Below the pieces are notes generated by a model. That model worked only from the letters and a program-made list of their open reading frames with translations. It was not told the DNA's origin and ran no database searches. Below, one piece after another: positions 1 to 16,998 of a DNA stretch of 17,205 bases. The stretch comes from a virus. Its lineage: Duplodnaviria; Heunggongvirae; Uroviricota; Caudoviricetes. The DNA lies in the IMG/VR virus record IMGVR_UViG_2548876701_000026. The stretch is one strand, 5' to 3'. Made by a program: the position numbers and the translations under genes. Position 1 is the first letter of the stretch; each line of letters opens with the position of its first letter.

Positions 1-201
1 TTAAGACTCCAGTTTCGCAAAGGCTCGACGTAACTGATTATTCAAATCACGGTCGACCAGCATCGCTATCAGCTCGTCTCGACTGTAGTAAGGGCGATCA
101 GGGTTATCGACTCCAAGTCTCAGCAGGGACAGGAGGTGACGGGTAGGCAGACCACGGTAGCGGAGAGTTGCACGACCAATAGGTGTGCGCGGGTCAATCA
201 T
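1..201 (-). CDS. hypothetical small protein (66 aa), translationally coupled to the upstream Rha-like gene
   Basis: Complete ORF: stop codon at 1-3, start at 201, overlapping the stop of the 203-931 gene. No recognisable motif. Confidence 0.45.
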   Translation of the reverse strand: MIDPRTPIGRATLRYRGLPTRHLLSLLRLGVDNPDRPYYSRDELIAMLVDRDLNNQLRRAFAKLES

Positions 202-202
202 C

Positions 203-931
203 TTAGAGTCCCTCCAGCTTGCCGGATTGGGCTTGCTTCAGGAGATGCTCTTGCTTCTGCTGGTCGGTGCCAGTGAAGGCAATAAGGATGCCTCGCAGTT
301 TATCGACTATCGCAGGCTTACCGAAGACCTCCAATCCCTTAGCGTTGAAGCGAAAGTTATAACCACCTGCTGAGAACTTCTGGTCTGACGGCTTAATGAT
401 ACGGAAGCAGTCGGAATACTTTGGATTTACAGACCACTCGTTACTGATTGGGTTCTTACGAAAGAGACCACGATGCTGAAGAAGTGCGGTCATTAGCTTC
501 TGAGCGGGTAGACCATAGGTTTTGCAGTAGTCGCCCCAAGTCACGCCTCGGCGGTTAGCGGACTGAATGGCTGCTCGCTTCTTCTGGTCTTCCAGTTGAA
601 GGACTCGACGCTCTAACGTCTGAATATGGTCGTAACACTTGGCGCGGAGGTGAACGGAATAGCCAGCGACCAGAATGAAAGTATGCTTACGGTCGAGACG
701 GTACAGAGGCTGCTGTTTCCCCTGCGCGTTTAGATAGACATCTTCAGTCACCCCGATATGACTGCTCAGTTTTGAGCACTGCTCAGTTTTGAGCGCGTTA
801 AGCTCCTCAGCCATATTGCGAATATCACGTAGGACATTTCGGTGCTCCTTGCCTGTCAGCTCAGCAATTTCAACTGAGGTCATGGAGACAAGCTGGTCGA
901 GGTTAATGACGCTGATTTCTTGTTGAGACAT
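203..931 (-). CDS. Rha-family phage regulatory protein with antirepressor (KilAC-like) C-terminal region
   Basis: N-terminal segment SVEIAELTGKEHRNVLRDIRNM matches the Rha-family signature as I remember it. AAGGAG-like RBS upstream of the ATG at 931. 242 aa. Confidence 0.7.
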   Translation of the reverse strand: MSQQEISVINLDQLVSMTSVEIAELTGKEHRNVLRDIRNMAEELNALKTEQCSKLSSHIGVTEDVYLNAQGKQQPLYRLDRKHTFILVAGYSVHLRAKCYDHIQTLERRVLQLEDQKKRAAIQSANRRGVTWGDYCKTYGLPAQKLMTALLQHRGLFRKNPISNEWSVNPKYSDCFRIIKPSDQKFSAGGYNFRFNAKGLEVFGKPAIVDKLRGILIAFTGTDQQKQEHLLKQAQSGKLEGL

Positions 932-1233
932 TTACGTGTACTCCTTTTGTTTGCACCCTGAAGTCGCACCCCCACTGACCTACTCAAGCCCCCACGTAAA
1001 GGGAGACCAGCAGGCAACAGGACGCAAACAGAATGACTTGAGGTAATTGGGGTTAGTGGTCTGCGATGACCATAGAGATGAAGGTTCGACAGCATGTCCG
1101 AGCGTGTGTGGTGATAGACTTAAGTCACGAGACCAAAGAACACAAAGGCTGACCAGAGGCTGGTGGCTAGCAAGCTAGCGTGGACCACGGTTTCTCGCTT
1201 GCCGTCTCTCAGGAGGTCAGAGGCGAGATATGG

Positions 1234-1255
1234 TCCCTATAGTGATAGTTTAGTC
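1234..1255 (-). promoter_or_regulatory. T7-class single-subunit RNA polymerase promoter-like element (copy 1), predicted start near 1237 reading leftward into the Rha gene
   Basis: Minus strand reads GACTAAACTATCACTATAGGGA; the core TCACTATAGGGA equals the -8..+4 core of the T7 consensus TAATACGACTCACTATAGGGAGA. Exact 21-nt direct repeat of 1793-1813. Confidence 0.5.
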
Positions 1256-1587
1256 AAACAGGAATGAACTTCGGAGAACCTGACGCGAAAGTGTTCAGTA
1301 CTTCCAGTTAGACCCGAAGTATGGAGAACCACATCATAGCGACCGTAGTATACTTCGGGCTGACAGGACTGGAGGCTGGACTTAAAGTTCTTCTTATTGG
1401 AATTGTGATAACACAATCCATAACAAGATGAACTCATGGTCTCCTCAAGCCTGCTGGTCAGGCTCAAAGCTCCAACCTCAGACACCACTGGTCTAACCTT
1501 TTTGAGTTTCCGCCTGTCCACAAATGGATGGCAGACCTCAGCAATGATGTCTTGGTTCTTCACAATCTCGCACACCGATGGTCGCAT
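1237..1587 (-). CDS. hypothetical protein (116 aa by ORF track; alternative start at 1437 with GAGGAG RBS gives 66 aa)
   Basis: ORF lies between promoter-like copies 2 and 1. Weak RBS at 1587, better RBS before the internal ATG at 1437. No motif recognised; could be spurious. Confidence 0.2.
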   Translation of the reverse strand: MRPSVCEIVKNQDIIAEVCHPFVDRRKLKKVRPVVSEVGALSLTSRLEETMSSSCYGLCYHNSNKKNFKSSLQSCQPEVYYGRYDVVLHTSGLTGSTEHFRVRFSEVHSCLTKLSL

Positions 1588-1790
1588 AGACGGATACTTC
1601 CGCTGCGGTCTGATGTTCTCCGCCTGTCAAAGGAGAGAGATTGCTACGTTAAAGGGAATGGTCTCAGGCCAAGGTGATTTAACACTAGGCTTATTGCGGA
1701 TGGTTTCCAATCGGTCCGCTACCGGAAGCCTGAGACTTAATGAATGTGTGGGTCGGTGGCTGTATTAAGCCCGGGGGGACTTAGGGTCTC

Positions 1791-1813
1791 TCCCCTATAG
1801 TGATAGTTTAGTC
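1791..1813 (-). promoter_or_regulatory. T7-class promoter-like element (copy 2), predicted start near 1795
   Basis: Minus strand reads GACTAAACTATCACTATAGGGGAGAGACC. Identical 21-mer to copy 1, and GGGGAGAGACC resembles the T7 initiating region GGGAGACC. Confidence 0.5.
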
Positions 1814-1820
1814 CCCCCCC
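1813..1820. repeat. C8/G8 homopolymer tract between promoter-like copies 3 and 2
   Basis: cccccccc at 1813-1820, read directly. Confidence 0.9.
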
Positions 1821-1839
1821 TTCCCCTATAGTGTGGGTT

Positions 1840-1840
<1 letters not shown>
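1821..1840 (-). promoter_or_regulatory. T7/SP6/K11-class promoter-like element (copy 3, divergent upstream half), immediately after the stop of the 1840-2499 gene
   Basis: Minus strand reads AAACCCACACTATAGGGGAA; CACACTATAGGG core. Confidence 0.35.
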
Positions 1841-4099
<2,259 letters not shown>

Positions 4100-4340
4100 G
4101 TACTGAGACCTTAGGTCTGCTCACTACTTCAACAAAGTTAGTCACAGTGTTGGTTACAGTGAGTAAAACTATCGGAAGGCTTTAAGCCGTATCCCTTAGG
4201 ATTCAGTAAGTTAGTAGACTTTAAGAATGGTCATGGAGCGGGCGAAGGGAATCGAGGAAACCCATAATAACCTGCTGTAAAATAAAGATTTTGTGATCAA
4301 TCATAGGTAACTGATTACGTGATAATAGAGGATCATTATC

Positions 4341-5561
4341 GTGTCGATCAAGAGCCAAGCATACTTATTTAAGAGAAAAGATGGGATCTGGATGTTTCAG
4401 ATTTTTGTTCCTAAATACTTACGTCATCTTTACCCTTACAAGTTGTGGAGAAAAAGCACATCTACACGAGATCTGAATGAGGCGAGAAGATTCAGAAACC
4501 ATCTATTATTAGAATGGGAGGAACTAAAGCGGAAACATAATCCTGATAACCCCGAAAGGAGGTTACAACAAGCTATTGAATCCTTACATTCAGAGGCAAG
4601 GGCCAATAAAAACACGCAAAGAGCCGTAAAACGCGGTTATGCATCGCCTTCCCTATGCTTAATACGTGACGAATACGCCGAATGCTACAGAGAGCGTCGT
4701 TCATACTCAACACTACAGAAATCAGCAAGGGCCGTTGAGCTATTTTTACAAAGCATTCAGAAAGATGATATTCATATTGAGAAAATAGGCAGACGGCTTG
4801 TAACAGTATTCTTAGATGACCAGAAGCAACGAGGAGCAGCCGATCAATCTCGTCAAAACTGGCTTACATGCTTAGGATCGCTCTATGAATTTGCTAAACG
4901 CCGTTATGACGGAATACCAGACAGTAACCCTTTTCACGGTCATAATCTCGAAGCACGTCGCACAATCGAGAGTTATCAACCGTTTACACCTGAACAAATG
5001 CAAAAGCTACTTGATGCAGCGGAGCCGGAGATCAGAAATATTATTTTAATGGGCTTGTTTTCAGGATGCAGATTAGACGAACTGGCAAGTCTGAAAAAGT
5101 CAGAGGTTGTAACTGTGGAAGGAATACGCTGTTTTTATATCAGCAAAAGTAAGACTAAAGCAGGGATCAGGCACGTTCCGATACATTCGAGACTATCGAT
5201 TATTGTCGATGAATATTTAAATCATAATTATGGTGAATATTTGTTCCCTCACTCGAACAAAGTAAAAAGAATCGACGGTAAGAAAGGCCCGTTCTATTCT
5301 CAAGCGTTCTCACGTTTACGTCGTAGCGTCTTGCCAATCGCTACAAATAGACAATGCTTTCACAGCTTGCGCGGGATGTTTATCACTTGTCTTGATCGTG
5401 CCGGAGTGCCTGAACAGCGGATCGGTGCCATTACCGGACATACAGAGCAGAGAGCTAAAACAGAAGCCTTTCGCACCTACTCACAAGGGGCAAGCATTCC
5501 AGAATTAGCTGAATATGTAGAATTAGTAAGATATGAATTAAATATTGATTTTAAGGCTTAA
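4341..5561 (+). CDS. int: tyrosine site-specific recombinase / phage integrase (406 aa, GTG start)
   Basis: R in GCRLDELASL, H-x-x-R in HSLRGMFITCL, GHTEQ...AFRTYSQ with the Tyr. N-terminus YLFKRKDGIWMFQIFVP parallels the other integrase. AGAGGA RBS 8 nt upstream of GTG. Confidence 0.85.
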   Translation: MSIKSQAYLFKRKDGIWMFQIFVPKYLRHLYPYKLWRKSTSTRDLNEARRFRNHLLLEWEELKRKHNPDNPERRLQQAIESLHSEARANKNTQRAVKRGYASPSLCLIRDEYAECYRERRSYSTLQKSARAVELFLQSIQKDDIHIEKIGRRLVTVFLDDQKQRGAADQSRQNWLTCLGSLYEFAKRRYDGIPDSNPFHGHNLEARRTIESYQPFTPEQMQKLLDAAEPEIRNIILMGLFSGCRLDELASLKKSEVVTVEGIRCFYISKSKTKAGIRHVPIHSRLSIIVDEYLNHNYGEYLFPHSNKVKRIDGKKGPFYSQAFSRLRRSVLPIATNRQCFHSLRGMFITCLDRAGVPEQRIGAITGHTEQRAKTEAFRTYSQGASIPELAEYVELVRYELNIDFKA

Positions 5562-5582
5562 AACAACGCCATAGGCGCAATA

Positions 5583-5611
5583 AAGAGGCTTCCTTGTAAT
5601 GGGAGCCTCTT
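5583..5611. terminator. bidirectional hairpin terminator between the convergent integrase (plus) and 613-aa gene (minus)
   Basis: aagaggcttcc / gggagcctctt form an 11-bp stem with one G-U wobble and a 7-nt loop, with T/A-rich flanks. Confidence 0.45.
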
Positions 5612-5668
5612 ATATGCTTAATTCCTTATAAGAGTGTTTTAAATGGTGATTAAACATTCTCTTTATCA

Positions 5669-7510
5669 TTAACTTGGTGCTTGCCCAGACAGAGCCGCCA
5701 ACGTGAAACTACGTTCAAAATCTTGTTGGATACTTCCCACTTTGTAATCGAGGTATGATCCAAGCTGACTACCATCAGGAGCGATATTCACATCAACCTT
5801 ACTTTCTGGCACGTTTACGACAATGCTTGGCGCATACGTCATAGATGGGGTAGTGTTCAGATCACGGCTAACGTTCTCTTTCAGGGATTGCACGTTATCG
5901 GACGGGCTTGAATAGTTCTGAATTGCAGTTCCGCCAGTCGTTGGCTTGTCTTCCGTGCCAGGGATAGGCGATAAGCCTAAAGCACTACGACCCCAATCAA
6001 CCATGCCGCCTACAAACGAATCCTTATAATACATACCGGACGAATCAAGGTTTTCATGTTTGTTCTCTGGATTTATATTCTGGTATGCAGCAGTAAGCCA
6101 CGATACAGCACCAGCAAAGGCGCTCATCATTTCAGCCGTTGAGCTTCCAAGTTCTTTAAACAGAGGATTGAGATCTTTCAACATTTGCGCCCACTCTTCA
6201 CCAGCCTGAGCGTCGAACTCTTCACCGAATCCCGTCATGATAGCTTTCTTACTACCTTCCCAGGCCATATTCATATTAGCCTGTACAGCTTGCAGACGTT
6301 CAGCAGCGTCAAGATCCGCTTGCGTATAGGTGGCATTGGCTTTTTGCATCTTAACGATGGTTTTATTTAGCTCTTCACCGTTACGACTGAAAGCACCACG
6401 GAAATATTGTAAATCATTTCCAAGGTCTTCAAGGATGTGACCCTGCTCCTGATCAGAGAGTCCACGGCGTTCTCCTTCTTTCACTACAGCGCCCAGGAAA
6501 CCTAATGGATCAGTCTGGAAACCTTTAATCTGTTCAGGACTCCAACCATATTTATTAAGGATGTTATCGACGGCACCATTACCGCCAGCCCAGCGACCTT
6601 TCTTAGCGTCCCATTTGGTATTCCCTACGGATTCACCTAAACGCTCTTGAACGTCTTTAAGGTTGTCTTGACGTTGGTCTACGGAACTATCGACACCGTG
6701 TTCTAAGCCGTACTGATTAAGTGCTAACAGGGCGTTAGTGTTTACGTTGACAGCCTTTGCCTTGCGGTTAGTGTCTGTGATCTTGCTTGCCTGATCGGTT
6801 ACGGTATTGAATATCGCAGCACCGCCGAGAGTGGCAGCAGTGAGAGCGGCACCGCCCACCATTGCACCTACACCACCGCCTATATGACCGCCTTTAAGCT
6901 GTTTAGCCATATGTGGATATTTACCGCCATCAGCCGCCACCTGGCGAGCTTTTACAGCAGCCGCACGGCGTTCTAACGTGATACGATCACGGATCAGGTG
7001 ATTCATCTTAGCCTGACTAATAGCGCCTTTCTCATACGCTGCCGTTTGTGCTTTGATGTATTGCAACGTTTTGTAGTATTGGGCGGAGTCCATACCGTCG
7101 CCCATACGCCCTTTCTTAATCCCTTCAAGCTGTCTGAAAGCTTGCTGGCGCTTAATCTCTGCTTTCTCTGCTATTGTCGCTTTAGCGCGGATCTGTTTAT
7201 CGGCAGCTATAGCGGCTTTAGCCTTCGCTTTAGCTTCTGCCTTTGCCACCTTATCAGCGTTCTTCTTATCGGTTTGAGCTTGCTTGTCTGACGCTTTGGC
7301 ATCAGTTTTAGCCTGTGCAGCTTTACGAGCCTTTACCAGATCATGAGCCTCGTCTATAGCTCGTTTAGCCTTCTTCCCTTTCAATGTTGGATTGGTTAGG
7401 TTTTCCATTTCTTTCTGAAATTTCTTCCCTGCGTCCCTTGCTTTCTGTAATGATGCAAAATCAACTTTAAATACAACCTTGTTTGTTAAGGTTGAGATGT
7501 TTAAATCCAT
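5669..7510 (-). CDS. large coiled-coil / glycine-zipper protein, tape-measure-like virion protein (613 aa)
   Basis: Lys/Ala/Glu-rich heptad-like N-terminal third (KVAKAEAKAKAKAAIAADKQIRAKA), hydrophobic Gly-zipper GGHIGGGVGAMVGGAALTAATLGGAAIF, long low-complexity C-terminus. AAGGA RBS upstream. Product assignment by composition only. Confidence 0.45.
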   Translation of the reverse strand: MDLNISTLTNKVVFKVDFASLQKARDAGKKFQKEMENLTNPTLKGKKAKRAIDEAHDLVKARKAAQAKTDAKASDKQAQTDKKNADKVAKAEAKAKAKAAIAADKQIRAKATIAEKAEIKRQQAFRQLEGIKKGRMGDGMDSAQYYKTLQYIKAQTAAYEKGAISQAKMNHLIRDRITLERRAAAVKARQVAADGGKYPHMAKQLKGGHIGGGVGAMVGGAALTAATLGGAAIFNTVTDQASKITDTNRKAKAVNVNTNALLALNQYGLEHGVDSSVDQRQDNLKDVQERLGESVGNTKWDAKKGRWAGGNGAVDNILNKYGWSPEQIKGFQTDPLGFLGAVVKEGERRGLSDQEQGHILEDLGNDLQYFRGAFSRNGEELNKTIVKMQKANATYTQADLDAAERLQAVQANMNMAWEGSKKAIMTGFGEEFDAQAGEEWAQMLKDLNPLFKELGSSTAEMMSAFAGAVSWLTAAYQNINPENKHENLDSSGMYYKDSFVGGMVDWGRSALGLSPIPGTEDKPTTGGTAIQNYSSPSDNVQSLKENVSRDLNTTPSMTYAPSIVVNVPESKVDVNIAPDGSQLGSYLDYKVGSIQQDFERSFTLAALSGQAPS

Positions 7511-7526
7511 AATATTTTCCTTTACC

Positions 7527-7562
7527 TTTTATTTGTTTTGTTTTGTTTTGTTTTGTTTTGTT
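7527..7562. repeat. pentanucleotide simple-sequence repeat (TTTTG)n on plus = (CAAAA)n on minus, about 6 units
   Basis: tttg followed by five perfect ttttg units at 7536-7560, read directly. Encodes the C-terminal KQNKTKQNK of the HTH gene and sits 18 nt upstream of the 613-aa start. Confidence 0.9.
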
Positions 7563-7735
7563 ACGTAGTATTGCACTGCTTCCATAGCTGAGCAGCCAGT
7601 AGTGAAGATTCTTTGACGTACAGCAGTATTAGAGATCCCTAAAAACTTACACACTTGAGAGATATTCAGAATATCTTCCGGTAAGGTGGAAACAGCTTTC
7701 AGGATCTCAACTGGATTGTTGTTTTGTTCGCTCAT
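7529..7735 (-). CDS. small helix-turn-helix DNA-binding protein (AlpA/excisionase-like), 68 aa from the ATG at 7735 (ORF track extends to 7786)
   Basis: ILNISQVCKFLGISNTAVRQRI is a classic HTH. The N-terminal 17 codons of the 7786 start overlap the upstream terminator hairpin, so the internal Met (MSEQ) is preferred. C-terminus is encoded by the (CAAAA)n repeat. Confidence 0.5.
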   Translation of the reverse strand: MSEQNNNPVEILKAVSTLPEDILNISQVCKFLGISNTAVRQRIFTTGCSAMEAVQYYVTKQNKTKQNK

Positions 7736-7778
7736 GATTTTTCTCTCACAATATTTTAATAGACGGTATAAACGAAAA

Positions 7779-7839
7779 AAGGGCAAAAGAGATTGTTTAC
7801 TGTATTTGCGCTACAGGTTTAATAATCCCTTTTGCCCTT
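7779..7839 (-). terminator. intrinsic terminator after the capsid-like gene (long-loop hairpin plus U6 on the minus transcript)
   Basis: aagggcaaaag (7779-7789) and cttttgccctt (7829-7839) are perfect inverted repeats; aaaaaa at 7773-7778 gives UUUUUU 3' of the stem on the minus strand. The 39-nt loop contains an inner ctgta/tacag hairpin. Confidence 0.4.
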
Positions 7840-7888
7840 ATTGCCTGTTTTATTTCCAGTCGCACAGGAAACGACTATTAACGCTTTA

Positions 7889-8917
7889 TTACGCTACTGT
7901 GATCTGTACAGTGAAGCCTACGCCGTGGTTTACAACCATCTGGCTATTCTCAGTAACTACGTTTACAGCGTCGTTACGTGCTGGGCTAAACGCATAGCTG
8001 TAATATTCAGCCGCGCCAGAATTCAGCAGGTCGAACGTTGAAGAAGGAGCGCCGAAAATGTTCTGATAGACGTTAGAGCCTTTAGCGAACTTCGGAACAG
8101 CAACCGCATCAGAAGTCATATGAGCCAGCAGCAGCGGATCAGTAACTTTAACGATATCGATGTTAGTCCCAGGAATAGTGAAGGTAGTCACACCTGGCAG
8201 CAGGGAGCGCACGCTATAAACGATGTTTGCGTCATCGGTAGGGCTTGCATACTGGAACGCGTTAACCATGCCAGCACTGTAACGGATAGCGTTGAAAGCA
8301 GCAGGTTTACAGAATACAACGATACGTTCTACAGCAGCCGCCTGGCTTTGTGCTTTAGTAATAACGTCTGTATGCATCTGATCGAATTGCTGGAACACCA
8401 TAGAAGGCGTGGTGCTTGATGCGTCGATGGTTGCAGTCATCGGAACAACACTAAACAGATCGCCCCACTGGATCAGCACATCATCAGTTTTAGGGGTGTA
8501 AGTGCGACCAGAGAACAGGGAAGCAGCCAGCACGCTTTCTTTAGTACGCTGGAAAGCAATGTGGTGCTTAGCAACATATTCCGCGTAGATATCTGTCAGA
8601 GTTTCTTCAACGGTAGCGCCTGGTTTACGTTTGCCTTGCACGTCTTGCGGCTTAATCATATCTTCACGCAGGAAGTAGGGGATCTCTACTAAAAATTCTT
8701 TACCCTGTTCACGTTTAGTCACGTTATGTTCAGAAGAGAAACGAGAGGTTTCTTTGTTGAACAGAGATTCGTTAGTTTCCACCAGTTGGCTAACAGCCAC
8801 TTTATGAGAACTCACACCTACCGGATCAGTAAAGTCGAGAGAAGTTAACAGGAAGTTGCGAGAGTCGTGCAGACTAAACAGCGGAGCCAGATCGACGGAT
8901 TCATTACCAATAATCAT
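7889..8917 (-). CDS. putative major capsid protein, lambda gpE-like (342 aa)
   Basis: Size and synteny (about 120-aa decoration-like gene immediately upstream, terminator downstream). Loose colinear resemblance to lambda gpE as I recall it (segments IAFQRTKESVLAASLFSGRTYT and ERIVVFCKPAAFNAIRYS). AAAGGAA RBS. Not verified by search. Confidence 0.45.
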   Translation of the reverse strand: MIIGNESVDLAPLFSLHDSRNFLLTSLDFTDPVGVSSHKVAVSQLVETNESLFNKETSRFSSEHNVTKREQGKEFLVEIPYFLREDMIKPQDVQGKRKPGATVEETLTDIYAEYVAKHHIAFQRTKESVLAASLFSGRTYTPKTDDVLIQWGDLFSVVPMTATIDASSTTPSMVFQQFDQMHTDVITKAQSQAAAVERIVVFCKPAAFNAIRYSAGMVNAFQYASPTDDANIVYSVRSLLPGVTTFTIPGTNIDIVKVTDPLLLAHMTSDAVAVPKFAKGSNVYQNIFGAPSSTFDLLNSGAAEYYSYAFSPARNDAVNVVTENSQMVVNHGVGFTVQITVA

Positions 8918-8935
8918 TATTTTTATTCCTTTATA

Positions 8936-9307
8936 TTAAGATGTGAATACAGTGTTAAAACCAGCCATCTGGAAACCTTTTGCAGCCAGGGCAGCAATAG
9001 CAGCTTCTTTCACAGCGCCTTCAACATTCAGAGCATCGGACTTGATGCAAACCAGTCCGGCATTGCTACGCAGCACGTTAACGGTTTTAGCGTCGCCAGC
9101 GGATACCGCATCAGACACAACTACAAGAACATCGCCGCCGCTTACATATTCAGCGCCGTCACTGGTAATCAGATCGCCGCATTCAACATCAACCGCCAGA
9201 TCAACGGTAAAAGATTGCACACAACCGAACTCATCAGTTGCATATGAAACGATATCGGTAAATGATTTGCGAACTGGAAACAGATCGCTCATATTAATAA
9301 TAGCCAT
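8936..9307 (-). CDS. putative head decoration protein (gpD-like), 123 aa
   Basis: Position immediately upstream of the capsid-like gene; small Ala/Val/Gly/Asp-rich protein with a C-terminal AAIAALAAKG segment. AAGGAAA RBS. Confidence 0.35.
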   Translation of the reverse strand: MAIINMSDLFPVRKSFTDIVSYATDEFGCVQSFTVDLAVDVECGDLITSDGAEYVSGGDVLVVVSDAVSAGDAKTVNVLRSNAGLVCIKSDALNVEGAVKEAAIAALAAKGFQMAGFNTVFTS

Positions 9308-9309
9308 AA

Positions 9310-9525
9310 TTAATAGTTTCCTTTTTTGGATTGTTTGATTTGTTCTGCTTTTGCTTTAATCAGATCCTGCATAGTAGGTTTCTGTTCATCAGCAGACTTA
9401 AAAAGCTTATCACAATGTTTTTTCAATTCTGTGGGAGTGATCCCCAGCATATAAGCCGTAGCATTGAATGTTTCATCAGTGATAACCAATTCTTCGTTAC
9501 CATTCTTTAGAATGAGATTTTGCAT
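9310..9525 (-). CDS. hypothetical small protein (71 aa), first gene of the capsid-like cluster
   Basis: ORF with stop abutting the start of the decoration-like gene. No motif recognised. Confidence 0.4.
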   Translation of the reverse strand: MQNLILKNGNEELVITDETFNATAYMLGITPTELKKHCDKLFKSADEQKPTMQDLIKAKAEQIKQSKKGNY

Positions 9526-9578
9526 TATTGCTTTACCTTTATTCCTAACAGTCTTGTTTAGTGCTGATAAAAATAAAA

Positions 9579-9599
9579 CCGGAAGGGGAAAGCTTCCGG
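9579..9599 (-). terminator. intrinsic terminator (minus-strand orientation)
   Basis: ccggaag / cttccgg form a 7-bp GC-rich stem with a 7-nt loop; on the minus strand it is followed by UUUUAUUUUUAU (plus 9565-9577). Confidence 0.55.
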
Positions 9600-10115
9600 C
9601 TTTATGAATACAACATTTGAAGGATGTTATAGAGTGTTACTAAATCGCAGTTTATATGAACTTAAAGAGGAGGACATATAAGAATAAGATTGCTTATTGT
9701 TATATACCCTTGAGGGGTGAATAACAGGCTTACAGGGAGTAGGCGCTTAGGAGGTCGCCCCCTTTGGAGAGGAATCTATAAACCTGTTATTCGTGCGACG
9801 GCTAATCGCTGTCTTTCACAATGTGGATGCATCGATCAGACTTTCAGGAATCACCTATTAACTTTCAAACCTTTTGGATTCTCATTTTAATAGGAGGCGG
9901 TGCCGAGATGATTTCGGGGATCATCCACGCTTTCGCGTTCTAAGATTGGCACCTTAATAAACACCAACAAACAAAAACATATTCAGCTTTAAGCTTAGTA
10001 GAAAACTGTTGTCAAGAAACAGATATACACCGTTATTTGTTTATACGGGGTTTATAGACACTGTAAACAGTGTTTTTAGAAAGTGTTTCATGCTTCGCAG
10101 TTGGTTAAAAAGATG

Positions 10116-10137
10116 AGGGGCCAAATCCGTAGCCCCT
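10116..10137 (-). terminator. candidate intrinsic terminator downstream of the small-gene operon
   Basis: aggggc / gcccct form a 6-bp stem with a 10-nt loop; the minus strand then reads CAUCUUUUUAACC. Confidence 0.35.
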
Positions 10138-10403
10138 GCATTCTTAAGACACAATTTTGATAAAGCAATAAGGAAAATAAAATGAAACTATTAACGAGGG
10201 AAACAATTTCTAAAAAATCACTGTAAAGGGAAAGCGGGATAGGTTAGATAGGGCGCGCCCCCTTGAGGTCTACCCCGCTTTCGTGTAGGATTAGAATCGG
10301 GAGAAGGATTAACGCCAGCTAACACATATTTTCGATTCAAAACCCCACATTTATTATTATAACATTTCTGTTAGTAAAAGTCAATAGGTAAATGCAATTA
10401 TTT

Positions 10404-10613
10404 TCAACTTTTTTCGGTTGTCAGTTCCCACTCACCAAATACGCAATTACCATCTAAAACGATTGTTTGATCGTTACCGTTATCATCGGTTACGTGCATC
10501 AGGCGGGTGTAAGTGTCGAGTAAGCCGGTATACACTTTACCTACTGTGAAACAATTACCCGCTTTCCCTTCTTCTGTGAGCGCCAGAAGGCGCACACGTT
10601 TAGTTTTTGTCAT
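10404..10613 (-). CDS. hypothetical small protein (69 aa), last gene of the operon
   Basis: Start overlaps the stop of the upstream gene (TAATG). No motif recognised. Confidence 0.45.
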   Translation of the reverse strand: MTKTKRVRLLALTEEGKAGNCFTVGKVYTGLLDTYTRLMHVTDDNGNDQTIVLDGNCVFGEWELTTEKS

Positions 10614-10921
10614 TAGTTGTTAGCCTTATCGATTAATTCATTAATGAGGGGTTGCAGATCTGCTACCGCTTCTTTCATGATTTCAGTGGTGTCATGAATG
10701 ACGATGATCAGATTAGAAAGGTCATCAGCTTCAATCTGTGCACCTTCGCTCTCTTCGCACGCTGCAATAAGTAGTTGCAGTGCTTCCCGCGTCGATTCCA
10801 GATTAATAACCGCCTGTGTGATGGTTAGCTCGCTTGGAAAAGTCAGAGCCGCGTTTACTGCTTTCTGTAAATCAATAACCAGATCCATCATTTGAATAGT
10901 TACGTTGTGTACTTCGCTCAT
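10613..10921 (-). CDS. hypothetical acidic protein (102 aa)
   Basis: TAATG overlap with both neighbours; Asp/Glu-rich helical-looking sequence. Confidence 0.45.
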   Translation of the reverse strand: MSEVHNVTIQMMDLVIDLQKAVNAALTFPSELTITQAVINLESTREALQLLIAACEESEGAQIEADDLSNLIIVIHDTTEIMKEAVADLQPLINELIDKANN

Positions 10922-11142
10922 TATGCCACTTCCTCTGATTGTTCTAATTGTTGTTGTGCTTCACGAGCTTTCTTCATAGCAATAGTGAGCGGGATTTTAT
11001 AAGTTGCAATGTTGTCTATAATATCATCGAGTAAACCGAGATCGTTTTCTTCCTGTGCACGTTCAATCAGGCTTATGAAGCATTCAGAAAGAAGTTTAAG
11101 ATCGTGAAAAGTGGTTGTCTCTAAAATTGCTTTGTTAATCAT
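10921..11142 (-). CDS. hypothetical small protein (73 aa)
   Basis: AAAAGGAAAA RBS upstream; acidic C-terminal tail. Confidence 0.45.
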   Translation of the reverse strand: MINKAILETTTFHDLKLLSECFISLIERAQEENDLGLLDDIIDNIATYKIPLTIAMKKAREAQQQLEQSEEVA

Positions 11143-11183
11143 TTTATTTTCCTTTTGTTAAGGGTTATATTCAGCAAACGCTG

Positions 11184-11564
11184 TTAATCGTCGATTTTTA
11201 TTTTATCAAGCAGAAGTAATTCGGTTTCTCTCACCCCTGCATATTGCAGACTGTTAAGAGCCATATACCCCCTAAAGTGGTGCATATCCTGAAAACCCAA
11301 ACACTGCCATCTTTTCAGAAGACTGGAATCTATAACCGTTGTTTTGCGTGGGCGCGGATTAAAGTAAACACCGTCCATACTTTGAATGAGTGATAATTCT
11401 TCGTCTGTTAATTCTGGGCTTGGTTCTTCAAGTATAAAGATCAATTCCTCGCCTGGTTGTGCATCATGCTCATAATTATATTTGCGAGGATTGTTTAACG
11501 CATACTGATCACATGCTTCGCCAATAGTTGTTATTACGTTTTTCTTGCCTTTTTTCTTGCTCAT
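11184..11564 (-). CDS. hypothetical protein (126 aa)
   Basis: GAAGGGGAAG RBS; basic N-terminus MSKKKGKKN. No motif recognised. Confidence 0.45.
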   Translation of the reverse strand: MSKKKGKKNVITTIGEACDQYALNNPRKYNYEHDAQPGEELIFILEEPSPELTDEELSLIQSMDGVYFNPRPRKTTVIDSSLLKRWQCLGFQDMHHFRGYMALNSLQYAGVRETELLLLDKIKIDD

Positions 11565-11685
11565 TGCTTCCCCTTCGTTTTGTTTTTCTTGTTGCAGTGT
11601 TAAAAAAGGAAGCGATCATAAATACTAAGAAAAATATTAAGCTTTCCATTGTTTCACCCTTCAAGATGTTTGATAGTTGTTTGTT

Positions 11686-11904
11686 TTAAGCTACAGAGTC
11701 GATTCTGAATGCTTTCATATGAGTTTTGGTATACTGCAATAATCCTTGTTTACTTAGGCTATCGAGAAGAGCATATAAAAATTGCTCACCTACCACACCG
11801 GAAAACTCAGAATCAAACAGAATCATTCCCGTTCTTTCCCGTAAATATTGCAGAAAGGTTTCTTGTGAAAATTCGCTATCGAATATGGTCACAGCGCCAC
11901 CCAC
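11686..11904 (-). CDS. hypothetical protein (72 aa, GTG start); possibly the downstream half of a frameshifted gene with 11889-12146
   Basis: GTG start overlaps the end of the upstream ORF by 16 nt in another frame; internal duplication IFDSEFS ... LFDSEFS. Confidence 0.3.
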   Translation of the reverse strand: MGGAVTIFDSEFSQETFLQYLRERTGMILFDSEFSGVVGEQFLYALLDSLSKQGLLQYTKTHMKAFRIDSVA

Positions 11905-12146
11905 AATTCGAAAGGGCTTATCTCAAGCAAACGGAACGTCTGACTATTCACAGCCTCATACTTAATTACCCCAAAATGGCTCAGGTGATTTAACCAGTGC
12001 TGTGTGTGTTCTTTACTATGAGGTAACTCCTGAAAGCTGATAATCGCGGGTAGCTCATAATTGCTATCAGCAAGCTGTTTTGCCAGTGTGTAGCCGCTTT
12101 CTGTAATTTCGAATGTTCGTTTGTTTAATGTCAGGTTGTATTTCAT
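11889..12146 (-). CDS. hypothetical protein (85 aa)
   Basis: AAGGAG RBS 9 nt upstream of the ATG; stop of the Rep-like gene is 12 nt upstream. Confidence 0.45.
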   Translation of the reverse strand: MKYNLTLNKRTFEITESGYTLAKQLADSNYELPAIISFQELPHSKEHTQHWLNHLSHFGVIKYEAVNSQTFRLLEISPFELWVAL

Positions 12147-12158
12147 TTTTTATTCTCC

Positions 12159-12824
12159 TTAAAATGGTATTGAGTCATAGATTTCACTTTCTTTTCTCAG
12201 GGCTATCATCAGTGCATTAAAAGCATCATCTTCAAGAATTATCCTCTTCGAGGTCAGTGCACGTTTTATAAAATTTTCTGTTTCTTCTTGCATAGGCTTT
12301 TGGCTGTCTATGGAAATAAGCCATGTAAAAAGATCAGATTGTTCCGTGATTTCTGCCTGTGTTTCCTGCTCAATAGAGTGTGTCGCTTCTAACGGTTCCT
12401 GTGTTTCAGGTGCAGGCTGTTCTACGTTTACAGAGGTTTTTACGTCTTCCGGTGGTGTGATGTGTGCATCTGTAAAGGGTAATGCTTTATAGAGTGATGT
12501 TTGCCCGTCCCGTGCCTCTACAGAAAGAACACCCATATCAATAAACATATTTATAATATTACGCACCTGACGATCACTAACCATTCCAATATTAGCTAAT
12601 GTTTTTTGATTGGCGTAACATTCTTGCCCTTGTTCATTGAACCCAGCTACGTAACTGTAGATTTCAACGGCTGGAAGTGTCGCGGTGTATTCCTTACCTG
12701 ACGGTGAGAACCACTTTTTAAACATCTTCAGCCATTGTTCAACTACTACATATGTTTGTTTACTATCTTTCTTATTGAGGCATTGCGCTTTTGCTTCGGC
12801 AATTGTTTTGGTGTTTTGGTTCAT
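12159..12824 (-). CDS. winged-helix DNA-binding protein resembling phage/plasmid replication initiator or replisome-organizer N-terminal domains (221 aa)
   Basis: Segment YSYVAGFNEQGQECYANQKTLANIGMVSDRQVRNIINMFIDMGVL fits the pattern (Y..N...G.CY.SQ.TLA...G.S...V.R.I..L...G.I) seen in Rep/replisome-organizer HTH domains; acidic linker follows. AAAGGAGG RBS. Confidence 0.5.
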   Translation of the reverse strand: MNQNTKTIAEAKAQCLNKKDSKQTYVVVEQWLKMFKKWFSPSGKEYTATLPAVEIYSYVAGFNEQGQECYANQKTLANIGMVSDRQVRNIINMFIDMGVLSVEARDGQTSLYKALPFTDAHITPPEDVKTSVNVEQPAPETQEPLEATHSIEQETQAEITEQSDLFTWLISIDSQKPMQEETENFIKRALTSKRIILEDDAFNALMIALRKESEIYDSIPF

Positions 12825-12948
12825 TTAGTTCCTCCTTTGTAAGGACTGTAATTAGTAATTCATTAACAAGTTTTGGAATTGATTTCCCTTCTGCCTTTGC
12901 ACGATTTAACAACGCGTTATAAGTTGCAGAATCAAAATTAATATTCAT
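12772..12948 (-). CDS. small DNA-binding-like protein, possibly ribbon-helix-helix (58 aa; below the ORF-track cutoff)
   Basis: ATG at 12948 with AAGGAG RBS at 8-nt spacing. Hand translation MNINFDSATYNALLNRAKAEGKSIPKLVNELLITVLTKEEL... shows a strand-helix-helix pattern. Overlaps the start of the Rep-like gene by about 50 nt. Confidence 0.4.
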   Translation of the reverse strand: MNINFDSATYNALLNRAKAEGKSIPKLVNELLITVLTKEELNEPKHQNNCRSKSAMPQ

Positions 12949-12971
12949 TTGGTTTTCTCCTTCTCCTGTTA

Positions 12972-13154
12972 TTATTCTTTCTCTGCTTCTGCCTTACGCA
13001 GTTCATCAATAATTTTTAGTGCATCGTCAAAGCATTTTTCACGCTCTGGATAACCACAGCGCCGCGCTGTGTTCCTGTTCATCCTTACTTGATGTCGTGT
13101 TAGCTCACCTTTTTTAAATGCCTCTACGACGTGTTCCGGTGTATACCATTTCAT
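12972..13154 (-). CDS. hypothetical small basic protein (60 aa from the ATG at 13154; ORF track begins at a GTG at 13187)
   Basis: AAGGAG RBS 6 nt upstream of the ATG (MKWYTPEHVV...). First gene of the leftward operon. Confidence 0.45.
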   Translation of the reverse strand: MKWYTPEHVVEAFKKGELTRHQVRMNRNTARRCGYPEREKCFDDALKIIDELRKAEAEKE

Positions 13155-13769
13155 AAAAAACTCCTTATTTAGATAAAAGAAAAACACACCTTGCAGCCTG
13201 ACGGCTCAAAGTGCAGTGTTCTGTGATTTGATTATTTAGATGGAGAGAGATGTTTCTCCCCTCCCTACTTACAATACTACATAACGGCGGCTTTGTCAAC
13301 CCTCTCTTATAAAAAACTTGATCATTTTCAATTTCTTATAATTTTTCTTAGCTTTTTGTGCTGCCTACTCTGGTACAATTCTTCCCTGTTGCCTAAAACG
13401 CTCTCAATCGCACTCTGACGGGGGTTTTGATAAAAACAATACATTCCCTTATGTAGAGGTTGTTTATCTCGTCAGAGGCTTATTTAAGGGGCTTATTTTT
13501 GATTTATCAGATGATGGAAAGATGGTGGATAGATAAACTCTGATTTCAGACATCTTATAAAATACCTGTAAAGCTCCTCAGAAGCTCTATAACGAGCTAA
13601 TCTATTACCGCTAAGTGTTTCCCTACCTTATATACGTTTAGCTCGCCTACGGCTTGATTTAAGCGGTAGAAACTTATTTAACCTTCAACTACTAAAACCA
13701 TTCTTTCTTTTTTGTTTGTTGTTGGTTGTTGTCTGTGTCTATGTGCTAACATCGCTAACGCGTAGCACA

Positions 13770-14035
13770 CAAGGTTATTGCACTCGTCAGAGTATTGCAC
13801 AATAGATTTTCTCTTAAATAGATTGATGATCGTTAGATTGGCGTAAGCCTCATCAATGGAACTATTGAAGCGCACAGCGCATAGACACTAACAACCATTC
13901 GCTTACGCTCAGGTTATTGCACAAGTAAATTTCAATCGTTAGATGGTAGTTAGTTAATTATCGTTCTGCGCACAGCGCAAGACTATTAGCCATACGCAAG
14001 CCGTAGGCTATTTGCACATAGTAGATTACATATTC
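13770..14035. repeat. degenerate tandem repeats of about 100 bp carrying recurring TTGCACA, CGTTAGAT and CGCACAGCGCA motifs
   Basis: cgcacagcgca at 13871-13881 and 13969-13979; cgttagat at 13831 and 13937; aggttattgcac at 13772 and 13911. Confidence 0.5.
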
Positions 14036-14918
14036 GTTGTGAGCGGAAAGCGAACATAGATCAGCTAACTACTAACAAAAAACAAAAAACAAAAACTATC
14101 TGTTATGACAAGCATCAGTCTAACTTGTGCAAGGTTCTGGCGAATGCCAATAGATTAAGGGATAGTCGAAGACTCCCTAACGGGTATCCCTATAATTATT
14201 CTTTAAAAGATAAAAGAATTTATAAAAGATAGTTTAATTGTAGTTTAATTATAGTATTGTAGGAACTCATTTCCTGGGTAGGTAGGAAACCCGCACTATA
14301 CGGTAAAAAGTGCTTGCATGTCAACTTATATTATGTTAATTGCGGCTTTAGATCGTCTAAGTGATTGTTAAAAGTAACTTTTAAAGTTAACAATTGATCA
14401 ATCAAACTTAAAAATTCCCGGCTTTAGAAAAGCATAAGTATTGTGCACACTGGTAAGTGTCTTGCACAGAAAAAGGTGTAAAAAATGTCTAAAGCCCTTT
14501 AGATAAAAATGATACCTTTATACATGCGCTAATAGCGCGCATAACAATAACCTACTAACAACTAACTAAAAAGTAAGAAGATGTTGTTATGATTAGTGTA
14601 TCGCTCAACGCTCACATCTATCTCTGATCTATAAATTGGTAACTGTCTAACAACAACAAACAACTATTACATGCAAAACAGCCTTACGGCTGCATAGAGA
14701 TGATTGGCTAACCTTCGGTTGCTACGCATAGCCATATCTATGAGAAGATAAAAGAGATTTAAAGGTTAGTTTGTTGTTGATCTAACTAACATTCGCTATA
14801 CGCTCATACAATCTACATTACACATTAACTATCAAACTACAATCTAACGATATATAGAATCTATATCCACTCATTATCATTCGTGCAATGATCACATTGA
14901 TAGTTCGCTATACGCTCA
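13898..14918 (+). repeat. four same-orientation iteron-like direct repeats TCGCT-N2/3-ACGCTCA; candidate origin or recombinase-binding region
   Basis: Copies at 13898-13911, 14601-14614, 14792-14806 and 14904-14918, inside a 2.25-kb AT-rich region with no credible ORF. Confidence 0.5.
14074..14094. repeat. (AACAAAA)3 heptanucleotide tandem repeat
   Basis: Read directly. Confidence 0.85.
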
Positions 14919-15440
14919 CCTCTATTATGTGCAATGGCTTTTCAGGCAACGCGTTAGCGTATTCTTGCGAATGCCTGATCTCCAAAGCCGGAATTAAACA
15001 GCAAGAATATCTCGTGTAAATCATAGAATATTCATAGTTTATCCCTATGTAATTCCATACTAAAAATTCAATGAAAAGTAGCTTAAAAGAGCAATGTTAG
15101 CTTTCTTCACTTTTACATTATCATCAGCAAAGCCTTATGTAATGCGGCATATAGCGCATCACTGCAAAATTGTTGCTCAATAAACGTTCTATCATTTATT
15201 GAACAAGTTTCCTTTAATGCAACAAAAAATTATTTTTTCAAAATAAACACACTATTTAATAGCTTGCTAATTTTACCAAAATGTAACTACATGATTCTCA
15301 TGCAAGACGTGTAGTGATAAAGCAGGCTAAATCACCACACTAAAAACCTTCGAATTTCGTAGTGAAAAAAGTCCTTTACACACCTAATCAACACGATCAA
15401 TAATCACTACACACAAATCAACACAGAAGGAATAAAGAAA

Positions 15441-15992
15441 ATGGCTAATATTGGATACATTAGGGTATCGACTGTGCAACAAAACACAGACCGTCAATTA
15501 GCTGGAGTAGCTCTTGATAAAGTCTTTGAAGATAAAGCGTCAGGCAAGAATACCCAGCGCCCACAGTTTGAGGCAATGATGAACTATGTGCGGGAAGGTG
15601 ATGTTTTGCATGTTCACAGTATTGATCGACTTTGCCGTAATACAGCCGACCTACTGGCAACGGTTGAGCAATTAACAGAGCGCGGCGTGTCTGTGCATTT
15701 CCATAAAGAAGACTTTAAGACAGGGAAGAACTCTCCCGCAGGGAATATGATGCTCACAGTGCTTGCAGCAGTGGCACAAATGGAACGTGAAATGATGCTT
15801 GAGCGCCAGCGTGAGGGGATCGCCGCAGCTAAGGCCGCTGGACGTATAGCAAAACGTGGTAATGGAAAAGCAATTGATCGAGCGGGAATTGCTGCCGCTC
15901 TCGCGAATGGTGGATCAATTCGGAGCGTAGCAAAAGATTTCAGTGTCAGCACACAAACGGTGCAACGTATCAAGAAAGAGCAGGAAGCGTAA
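15441..15992 (+). CDS. small serine recombinase of the resolvase/invertase family (183 aa)
   Basis: N-terminus MANIGYIRVSTVQQNTDRQ with the catalytic Ser in the GY(I/A)RVS-T motif; DRLCRN; C-terminal HTH GSIRSVAKDFSVSTQTVQRI. Compares well with Hin/Gin/TnpR as I recall them. AAGGA RBS. Confidence 0.85.
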   Translation: MANIGYIRVSTVQQNTDRQLAGVALDKVFEDKASGKNTQRPQFEAMMNYVREGDVLHVHSIDRLCRNTADLLATVEQLTERGVSVHFHKEDFKTGKNSPAGNMMLTVLAAVAQMEREMMLERQREGIAAAKAAGRIAKRGNGKAIDRAGIAAALANGGSIRSVAKDFSVSTQTVQRIKKEQEA

Positions 15993-16227
15993 TGCCTCCT
16001 GATATTTCAGAATTGTCGCTGCATGGACCTGACGGCGCTGATCTTCTCGTTAAGCGATGATCACGTATGCGCCGATTTCAGAGAAAAAGACAGTAACTGA
16101 ACTCACTATGAAGGCTAAACGTATCTTTACACTTGATGGAAACGTCCAAAAAACAACCTAACCCCAAAACCCAACAAATTGCAAAATATTGTTTTTAAAA
16201 GAAAATCAAATCTACATCAAATATTGG

Positions 16228-16256
16228 TTGACGTAGATTGAGGTGAATAGTAGACT
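16228..16256 (+). promoter_or_regulatory. candidate sigma70-type promoter (TTGACG-17-TAGACT) overlapping an imperfect inverted repeat
   Basis: -35 TTGACG at 16228-16233 and a 4/6 -10 at 16251-16256; inverted repeat AATCTACATCAA / TTGACGTAGATT at 16209-16239. Confidence 0.25.
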
Positions 16257-16332
16257 ATTAGGATAAATTACCAGTATTGCACACAACAAATTTGCATGAT
16301 TTAATCCCCCTCACATTCATTTAGGGGGCGTT

Positions 16333-16500
16333 ATGCATTTATCTTCAAAACATCTTAGCACTATCCGCTTTCTCGTTATTGCTTCATTCGTTGTAGCTAT
16401 CAGTTACCGACTTTTTGTTGCCTCCAATGACGAAATGAATCCTCTTGCTATTATTGCCCATTCAATAGCGACAATAGTTAGACGGTTTGAAAAACCGTAA
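16333..16500 (+). CDS. small hydrophobic (single transmembrane helix) protein, 55 aa; not in the ORF track
   Basis: AGGGGG RBS 4 nt upstream of the ATG. Hand translation MHLSSKHLSTIRFLVIASFVVAISYRLFVASNDEMNPLAIIAHSIATIVRRFEKP. The RBS can pair with CCCCCT at 16305-16310. Confidence 0.35.
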   Translation: MHLSSKHLSTIRFLVIASFVVAISYRLFVASNDEMNPLAIIAHSIATIVRRFEKP

Positions 16501-16644
16501 TACAATAAACATCCGAAATAATTTCGAAAGCAACTCATTTTTACTCTGCAAACAATCAGAAAAGACTTAATTTTGCTAAGTTAATGCATTAATCTAAAAA
16601 CGCTTTAAATCAATACATAACCATTATCTCTTGGGATTATTTAC

Positions 16645-16965
16645 ATGCGCAAAAGTTTAATGCTGTTACTTGCTTCAACATTGATTATTTCTGGATGTGC
16701 AACAAAAAAACAACTCGTTCCAACTGGTGGAAGCAAATCAGACGGCACAGTTAGGATGAGTTATTCTTACGGTATGTTTGAAAGTCCTGTTGTAGATCCA
16801 CAACAAGGCATGAATGCAGCCAAAGCGCGTTGTGCCGCTTGGGGATATTCAGGAGCCGAGCCTTTTGGTGGATTCACTTCTCAATGTTCACAACCTTCTT
16901 CATCTGGTTGTATGCAAACACTTGTGACTATCGAATATCAATGCACTGGCGATATTAAGAAGTAA
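16645..16965 (+). CDS. lipoprotein (106 aa)
   Basis: Signal peptide with lipobox LIISGC (Cys at residue 18), followed by a Cys-containing mature domain. Confidence 0.65.
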   Translation: MRKSLMLLLASTLIISGCATKKQLVPTGGSKSDGTVRMSYSYGMFESPVVDPQQGMNAAKARCAAWGYSGAEPFGGFTSQCSQPSSSGCMQTLVTIEYQCTGDIKK

Positions 16966-16970
16966 TAATT

Positions 16971-16987
16971 AGGGGCTTCCAGCCCCT
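16971..16987. terminator. bidirectional hairpin terminator between convergent genes
   Basis: aggggct-tcc-agcccct: perfect 7-bp stem with a 3-nt loop. Confidence 0.5.
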
Positions 16988-16998
16988 TCTATAACCAT

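Follow-up and report, generated by a model that had tools for sequence, protein, structure and literature searches.

The window, a stretch of 17,205 nucleotides (nt) from the IMG/VR virus record IMGVR_UViG_2548876701_000026, begins with part of a small Escherichia coli chromosomal island that carries promoters matching those of T7-group phages. Taken as a whole, the island is probably a satellite-like element triggered by the single-subunit RNA polymerase (RNAP) of an infecting phage. According to this model, the island promoters would be silent in an uninfected cell. Upon infection with a cognate K1F-type or SRT7-type phage, the early-made phage RNAP would recognise the promoters and transcribe leftward a ~490-nt RNA and then an operon of a Rha-like regulator, a small open reading frame (ORF), a DUF6971 scaffold-like protein, and an HK97-fold capsid protein. 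Presumably, the island is excised by its own integrase and copied by the phage replisome, for which the tandem promoters and the structured transcript could provide a T7-type RNAP-primed origin. Its own capsid protein is presumably used together with the phage portal, terminase, and tail, at the cost of the phage. The island would then be a phage-RNAP-triggered parasite or satellite of virulent T7-group phages that also bears the anti-T7 gene RAZR. That it is indeed transferred by phage, and is a true satellite in this sense, is marginally favoured.

The promoters were recognised from repeats. The exact 21-nt direct repeat CCCTATAGTGATAGTTTAGTC is found at 1235–1255 and 1793–1813 and reads on the minus strand as GACTAAACTATCACTATAGGG at both places, whereas a third copy reads as GAAACCCACACTATAGGGG, with its CACTATAGGG core at 1824–1833 on the minus strand. 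A sequence-only reading of the window had pointed to the two exact repeats, to the leftward direction of all three copies, and to the improbability of their occurrence by chance, and it was right in each respect. Allowing up to one mismatch, CACTATAGGG occurs 5 times in place of the 0.59 occurrences expected, a number reached in 0 of 200 shuffles, and its exact copies are the three repeats. The same reading counted an 11-nt shared core; the core common to all three copies is 10 nt. The conserved core from -7 to +1 (CACTATAG) and the G-rich start are present, CACTATAGGG being found in 3/3 copies, and the predicted +1 G is at 1237, 1795, and 1826, in each case on the minus strand.

The specificity region (-12 to -8) divides the promoters into two types. 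It is ACTAT in the K1F type, as in the promoters of phages K1F and YZ1 (10–11 each; an RNAP gene is annotated in both phages), and ACCCA in the SRT7 type, as in the 11 promoters of phage SRT7. Following the direction of transcription, an SRT7-type promoter at 1821–1843 (-17 to +6; ATGAAACCCACACTATAGGGGAA; +1 G at 1826) is the first of a tandem pair, and a K1F-type (Kayfunavirus) promoter at 1790–1813 (GGACTAAACTATCACTATAGGGGAGA; +1 G at 1795) is the second and heads the non-coding RNA. A second K1F-type promoter at 1232–1255 (GACTAAACTATCACTATAGGGACCAT; +1 G at 1237), 558 nt downstream of that of the tandem pair, heads the rha operon. All three are on the minus strand. Between the tandem promoters there is a C8 run at 1813–1820 (G8 on the transcribed strand), which ranges from G5 to G8 among relatives and may vary by slippage.

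The K1F-type repeats match known phage promoters exactly. The 19-mer CTAAACTATCACTATAGGG is exact in 35 IMG/VR DNA stretches, nearly all from T7-like contigs of ~39–40 kb, and these contigs are Kayfunavirus phages (K1F-like; Autographiviridae, Studiervirinae). Escherichia phage YZ1 and K1F have 10–11 intergenic plus-strand sites of the form CT(A/T)A(A/G)CTATCACT(A/G)TAGG(G/A), which are located in front of the customary gene blocks of T7-type phages. One of them, AGGACTAAACTATCACTATAGGGAGA, precedes the major capsid gene (gene 10), and the island copy at 1813–1790 agrees with it over 22 nt without a mismatch; the island promoter at 1232–1255 agrees in the same way, over 22 nt, with the YZ1 promoters at 16576 and 20398. 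Altogether, the island repeats are exact over 19–22 nt to about 10 K1F/YZ1 sites, which strongly supports the earlier assignment to T7-class single-subunit-RNAP promoters. The third repeat had been taken for a diverged copy of the other two, a view that has to be given up: its core, AACCCACACTATAGGG, recurs unchanged in 11 promoters (ATTAACCCACACTATAGGGAGA) on a contig of 39,883 bp with 100% identity to Escherichia phage SRT7, and it belongs to another specificity class. Interpreting it as a degenerate Dev2-type promoter was likewise dropped, as the core matches the SRT7 promoters exactly. When the whole island was compared with YZ1 by blastn, the promoters were the sole DNA in common, and no terminal-repeat, pac-like, or antisense matches were found. 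Judging from these identities, the repeats are very probably functional promoters of the cognate phages.

Relatives of the island provide an independent view of the same sites. In relatives at 69–92% identity, phage-type promoters occur at the same two positions, while the flanks have diverged and the promoter class has been swapped among the K1F type, the Dev2/SH4/GW1 type (TATACCCTCACTATAGG), and the SRT7 type. At the second-promoter position, a phage-type promoter is present in loci L002, L003, L007, L042, L044, L046–L049, and L054, and the site is mismatched or undetected in L006 and L050–L053. The first position of the tandem pair is occupied by other promoter classes in other islands. 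In many islands, a (T/A)ATACCCTCACTATAGG promoter is paired with a K1F-type promoter; the former is that of Cronobacter phage GW1, and the contig with GW1-type promoters is 90–92% identical also to Dev2, Citrobacter SH4/SH5, Enterobacter EP1, and E. coli Ro103C3lw. Single islands thus carry promoters for two or three RNAP specificities. Such a set would make sense for an element that awaits whichever phage arrives, and would make no sense for a phage with one polymerase or for sites of the island's own binding proteins.

In 111 complete E. coli genomes (≥99% identity), the same glyU site is occupied by a sister family. On the minus strand of the sister island of NZ_CP029973 (L063), positions 7480–8110 contain one promoter of perfect T7 consensus (TAATACGACTCACTATAGGGAGA) and two of perfect K11 consensus (AATTAGGGCACACTATAGGGAGA), as well as an AATTAGGTAGCACTATAGGGAGA variant. 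The promoters are followed by an AT-rich stretch and then by a Rha-like gene, a DUF6971 gene, and a gene for a 375-amino-acid (aa) capsid-like protein, which is homologous to the 329-aa protein of the island described here (hhalign probability 100%, E 1e-57).

The boundaries of the island are defined by its attachment (att) sites. Over its first 4.3 kb, the window is matched at 100% identity by chromosomes of enterohaemorrhagic E. coli strains, among them O26:H11, and a match is present in 571 of 5,426 complete E. coli genomes. In NZ_CP027546, the region sits between the ETT2 type III secretion island and the tRNA-Gly gene glyU, and to the left of the window there follow, in order, an IS66-family element (ISCro1), the rest of the small island, and the ETT2 island. 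The att core TGGAGCGGGCGAAGGGAATCGA (4234–4255, no strand assigned), a copy of the glyU 3' end, marks the right end of the island and the junction with a second island. In locus L001, the att direct repeat occurs at 15149, 24234, and 37721, the last being the tRNA itself, and the island extends from L001 15149 to window position 4255. Intact relatives are bounded with similar precision: TGGAGCGGGCGAAGGGA (17 bp, tRNA-Gly 3' end) is present at both ends of a 6.39-kb element in E. coli DETEC-P829 (NZ_CP116106; L002), and AGTTCATCTGGAACT (15 bp) flanks, on either side, a 6.6-kb element lying within ynfE of NZ_AP027850.

Intact copies have the same 6–7 genes across many genera. Their order is integrase, one cargo gene, tandem phage promoters, ~490 nt of non-coding DNA, phage promoter(s), and a conserved leader, followed by a swappable regulator, a 57–66-aa ORF, a 163–169-aa protein, a 328–357-aa protein, a terminator-like hairpin, and att. 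Copies from E. coli, S. Typhi, Serratia, and Kluyvera all follow this order, as do one of Enterobacter type and one from a record labelled Photorhabdus, and partial loci of Citrobacter and Leclercia have the same RNA and promoter region. A 28-mer from the window RNA has matches in 3 species representatives. The S. Typhi copy is probably SPI-15, a 6.5-kb island at tRNA-Gly. As in satellites, an integrase and att sites are found at a size far below that of a phage and without the genes of an autonomous lytic cycle. Searches with Pfam, PHROGs, and PADLOC revealed no RNAP, DNA polymerase (DNAP), primase, replication, portal, terminase, tail, or lysis gene in the island, and the 6.4-kb island likewise has no portal, terminase small subunit, protease, or head-tail connectors. 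Domains of an AlpA/Stl-type regulator or of a primase/replication module are absent by Pfam and PHROGs, and the insertion site is glyU or ynfE, not next to fis. The tyrosine integrase (535 aa; 2492–4099, minus strand; Pfam Phage_integrase, 2.8e-18) adjoins the att core.

The region between the tandem promoters and the second K1F-type promoter is strongly conserved across genera. Because the alignment shows single-nt indels and non-conserved ATGs, the region is considered non-coding. Its main feature is a structured RNA of ~490 nt (1308–1795, minus strand) that lies downstream of the tandem promoters and shows covariation. RNAalifold, with 13 sequences from at least 7 genera, yields 104 pairs, 30 of which have compensatory double changes. 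For example, one 8-bp helix exists in three versions, CAATCTC/GAGATTG, GTTATC/GATAAC, and AGCTGACC/GGTTAGCT. In a 141-pair structure, 94.4% of cells pair, and 32 pairs show double changes compared to 16.1 ± 2.1 in shuffled alignments (0/500) and 3–11 when the partners are slid. The window RNA folds with z = -4.6, and Rfam gives no match at E ≤ 1 for window positions 1–4400. As judged by covariation, the ~490-nt region is a new structured RNA. Its only evident promoters are of the phage-RNAP type. For this RNA, the favoured role would, by analogy, be in RNAP-primed replication, given that the island lacks a replication gene. The T7 class II pause/termination signal ATCTGTT, a possible packaging cue, is absent downstream of the promoters in most islands.

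The second K1F-type promoter is followed by the operon 5' leader (932–1237, minus strand), of which the last ~130 nt (932–1065; …AAGTCATTCTGTTTGCGTCCTGTTGCCTGCTGGTCTCCC…GGGTGCAAACAAAAGGAG) and an AAGGAG ribosome-binding site are conserved. This end of the leader is kept across island families despite a differing downstream gene, and it is also found at 80–89% identity in many further E. coli genomes or islands with other downstream genes. It could be a processing or translation-control element. The first gene of the operon encodes a Rha-family regulator or Ant-like protein of 242 aa (203–931, minus strand; Pfam Phage_pRha 3.5e-18; PHROG Ant 2e-69), and in relatives the rha slot holds KilA-N, Bro-N, or other regulators. 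Next is a 66-aa ORF (1–201, minus strand), the position of which is conserved, with 57–66 aa in relatives. It has no family match in Pfam, PHROGs, or PADLOC, and it is possibly an excision or regulatory factor.

The last two genes of the operon appear to form a head module. In the 163–169-aa protein, precomputed Pfam matches on some homologues indicate a DUF6971-type N-terminal domain, which is followed by a helical middle part of high charge and by a conserved NWMD motif at the C-terminus; on these features, we infer a scaffold-like protein. For the 329-aa protein, an indexed search returned only close homologues, and no sequence match was found in PDB, Pfam, PHROGs, or PADLOC. A full HMMER profile search gave 66 relatives, some with C-terminal Big_2 or He_PIG Ig-like domains, and such domains on the remote homologues are typical of virion proteins. 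These remote homologues were needed for structure prediction: AlphaFold2 gave a mean predicted local distance difference test (pLDDT) score of 35 with 11 close homologues, and a pLDDT of 82 and a predicted template-modelling (TM) score of 0.77 with a 40-sequence alignment. In a Foldseek search of PDB with this model, the top 50 of 50 matches are HK97-fold major capsid proteins or encapsulins with probability 1.0, including those of phi29, T5, and T7 (gp10), and most named matches in BFVD are HK97-fold capsid proteins or encapsulins. The TM-scores are modest (0.3–0.45), as is usual for the flexible HK97 fold. By its predicted structure, the 329-aa protein is an HK97-fold capsid protein. A Ccm-like origin of the island capsid from the helper capsid is unsupported, as hhalign detected no similarity to K1F gp10. 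A terminator-like hairpin lies 3' of the capsid gene.

The cargo gene of the window's island is RAZR (PD-T7-4), which encodes a zinc-ribbon and DUF4145/HEPN RNase (1840–2499, minus strand; PADLOC PD-T7-4, E 1.3e-102, positions 1–209 of 211). RAZR lies upstream of the phage promoters and is therefore not driven by them. According to PMC13017515, RAZR is a HEPN RNase of the abortive-infection type, which becomes active when it assembles around the portal ring of T7 or T3. The window gene is full length and has all key residues reported in PMC13017515: the catalytic R146/H154, the C4 zinc ribbon, and the trigger-interface residues R29/Y31/R35/T41/E43. RAZR is only the cargo of the island, and neither PMC13017515 nor PMC9519451, when searched by term, mentions phage promoters on the island, a capsid gene, or a satellite. 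In Enterobacter/E. coli ynfE-type islands, the cargo slot without RAZR (3145–3753 in L050–L053) holds a 202-aa protein with a weak RiboL-PSP-HEPN match only (E 0.09), which may be a HEPN-type defence gene.

The window's own copy of the island has been interrupted. The ISCro1 element occupies about 17162–19851 of L001, with an 8-bp target duplication (GCTAGACA), and lies just left of window position 1. It was inserted exactly at the start codon of the DUF6971-like gene, changing ATG TCT AGC to CTG TCT AGC. As a result, the morphogenesis genes are displaced by 2.7 kb, the scaffold-like gene is without a start codon and ribosome-binding site, and both the scaffold-like and the capsid genes are parted from the promoter-driven operon. 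The promoters, the RNA, rha, and the 66-aa ORF are intact in the window. This copy is therefore probably defective for morphogenesis and no longer a functional mobile unit, but phage RNAP would still transcribe it.

Most of the window belongs to a second integrative element of low GC content (~38–45%) and ~13.5 kb, which is arranged in tandem at the glyU att core and occupies window positions 4256–17205 and beyond, to ~17740 (tRNA-Gly). It encodes an integrase (4341–5561, plus strand), a tape-measure-like protein of 613 aa (5669–7510), a major head protein (7889–8917), a replication-initiator-like protein (12159–12824), and a DNA invertase (15441–15992), and has no T7-type promoters. From its gene content, it looks like another satellite or a mini-prophage. 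Its non-coding segments at 13701–14095 and 7530–7570 contain long A/C-rich tracts (AACAAAAAACAAAAAAC and complements) that form imperfect inverted repeats of 30–36 nt.

Several observations weigh against a phage-triggered, phage-transferred island. No circular, concatemeric, or virion form was found among the metagenome and IMG/VR matches. A metagenome contig (ERZ1034969 NODE_2414, 6,455 bp; L073) corresponds almost exactly to one island copy at 99.6% identity with flanks of 18 and 28 nt; its ends do not overlap, and a break in the assembly at the att repeats is a likelier origin than excision. Contigs of nearly 6.4 kb with the capsid gene proved to be ordinary chromosomal fragments. Many copies are ~100% identical within clonal lineages, which fits vertical inheritance, and the window's copy is disrupted by the insertion sequence. 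In addition, the island is without recognisable replication, terminase, portal, or pac function, shares no DNA other than the promoters with the helper, as represented by YZ1, and encodes a capsid protein whose profile shows no similarity to K1F gp10 by hhalign, so that its co-assembly with phage parts is not evident. Much of this would be accommodated if the island were a defence-only module, in which phage RNAP induces proteins and/or an RNA by which the infection is aborted or poisoned, and which is not packaged by phage but spreads by other routes. The HK97-fold protein and its DUF6971 partner could then be a decoy shell or an encapsulin-like trap. In favour of such a module, every packaging and replication gene is missing, the constant companion cargo is a defence gene (RAZR or the 202-aa protein), and encapsulins are among the best structural matches of the capsid protein. 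We nevertheless regard it as unlikely. Mobility is evident from the integrase, from the precise att sites at two chromosomal loci, and from the spread over at least 7 genera, and the arrangement of capsid gene, scaffold-like gene, and terminator is that of a head module. Since known satellites are also defensive, a defence-only module overlaps with a phage-triggered satellite rather than excluding it.

The remaining explanations concern the promoters themselves. The sequence-only reading had proposed either the early region of an integrated T7-supergroup prophage with its RNAP gene further left, or an element whose promoters a helper polymerase can read. Integrase-bearing T7-like phages exist elsewhere, and the promoters are genuinely T7-class and adjacent to an integrase. 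As stated there, the window holds no RNAP-sized gene (the largest ORF is ≤613 aa). A gene for a single-subunit RNAP is also missing from the annotation of the 20 kb flanking the 4.3-kb match on each side, including the left, where the prophage alternative had placed one. Because the RNAP, DNAP, portal, terminase, tail, and lysis genes are absent from intact copies, which measure 6.4–6.6 kb between att repeats and keep the same genes in many genera, a prophage or its remnant is refuted; moreover, only the promoters match a Kayfunavirus genome, and a phage with one RNAP has no need for two or three specificities per island. The helper-polymerase alternative fits the promoter identity and was right in its direction. 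The class of the promoters was recognised from the start, while the class of the third copy, the structured RNA, the identity of RAZR, and the island's own capsid gene were missed. If instead the repeats were sites for the island's own proteins, integrase arm sites or Rha operators, their likeness to T7 promoters would be a coincidence. Direct repeats do flank a regulatory region on an integrase-bearing element; however, they are identical over 22 nt to phage promoters, initiation region included, every copy is oriented as the downstream genes, and 2.4–3 kb separate them from the att core. In relatives that share the integrase and the layout, the promoters belong to other phage classes (T7, K11, Dev2-type, and SRT7-type), and the regulator gene is swapped independently of the promoter class. 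Sites of this kind are very improbable. Chance similarity without function, for which nothing speaks except that the motif is short, is excluded by the three exact cores, where 0.59 would be expected even with one mismatch allowed, and by phage-type promoters at the same positions across genera in diverged neighbouring sequence.

Phage T7 and its relatives are the best-studied virulent phages and common agents of phage therapy. We found no prior description of a satellite or host element wired to the private RNAP of the T7 group, and a search of the full-text literature, the coverage of which was incomplete, found no description of T7-type promoters on chromosomal islands, of satellites of T7-like or Kayfunavirus phages, or of such elements in connection with SPI-15 or DUF6971. 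The phage-triggered island would be a new, family-level variant of a phage satellite or defence island with an unusual induction logic, in which direct promoter mimicry takes the place of anti-repression. If so, about 5–10% of complete E. coli genomes and several enteric genera carry a built-in, sequence-specific sensor of T7-like infection that is linked to both a capsid gene and a defence gene. Induction of this kind lends itself to direct testing, since the RNAPs and phages of T7, K11, and K1F can be obtained and one sister island comes with perfect T7 promoters. The analysis also adds a large structured RNA and places RAZR/PD-T7-4 in a natural context. Consensus T7 promoters on some natural E. 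coli chromosomes call for caution with T7-expression hosts. A more far-reaching proposal remains tentative and somewhat less probable than its opposite: that these islands are a hitherto unrecognised, widespread capsid-encoding satellite family of virulent T7-group phages in Enterobacterales, induced by phage RNAP via promoters of multiple specificities (K1F, SRT7, and Dev2/T3-like, with perfect T7 and K11 promoters in the sister family), replicated in the absence of a replication gene from an RNAP-primed origin at which the 490-nt structured transcript serves as a primer of the ColE1 RNA II type, and packaged into small shells of their own HK97-fold protein.

Compared to the K1F/Kayfunavirus and SRT7 promoters, the island promoters share the specificity region, the CACTATA core, and the GGG start, and the identity reaches +3 from about -17 in the K1F type and about -13 in the SRT7 type. 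They differ in residing on a chromosomal island without an RNAP gene and in their tandem specificities, which are seen in no single phage genome examined. The primary origin of T7 reportedly consists of the tandem promoters phi1.1A and phi1.1B followed by an AT-rich region, and plasmids with a T7 origin are said to be replicated and packaged in T7 infection, in work attributed to Fuller and Richardson and, in 1990, to Chung and Hinkle. Similarly, tandem phage promoters head a non-coding region in the island, which is an element without a replication gene, and the T7/K11-type sister island has an AT-rich stretch after its promoters. In contrast to the T7 origin, the island has a covarying RNA of 490 nt, which in this respect looks closer to the ColE1 RNA II primer.

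Among satellites, P4 integrates at a tRNA gene, carries a defence hotspot, and has late genes that are switched on by the transcription machinery of its helper P2. The helper activators act on host RNAP, and P4 has its own primase/replicase and resizes P2 capsids by Sid. The island resembles P4 in its tRNA-gene site and defence gene, whereas the helper's own polymerase would read the island directly. The phage-inducible chromosomal minimalist islands (PICMI) of Vibrionaceae encode three core proteins for excision and replication, integrate beside fis, lack a gene for capsid remodelling, and fill heads of full size as 8-mers (PMC10803314). Like the island, PICMI are very small (~6 kb) integrative elements with defence cargo, and they depend on virulent phages (PMC10803314); unlike PICMI, the island has no replication gene but has HK97 capsid and scaffold-like genes and phage-RNAP promoters. 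As described, capsid-forming phage-inducible chromosomal islands (cf-PICI) encode all proteins for their own capsids and DNA packaging and steal only tails (bioRxiv 10.1101/2022.09.08.507074). On that description, the island and cf-PICI both have a capsid protein of their own rather than a remodelled helper capsid, but the island has only the capsid and scaffold-like proteins, and its proposed trigger is the RNAP of a virulent phage. None of PICMI, cf-PICI, and P4 uses the promoters of the helper's own polymerase.

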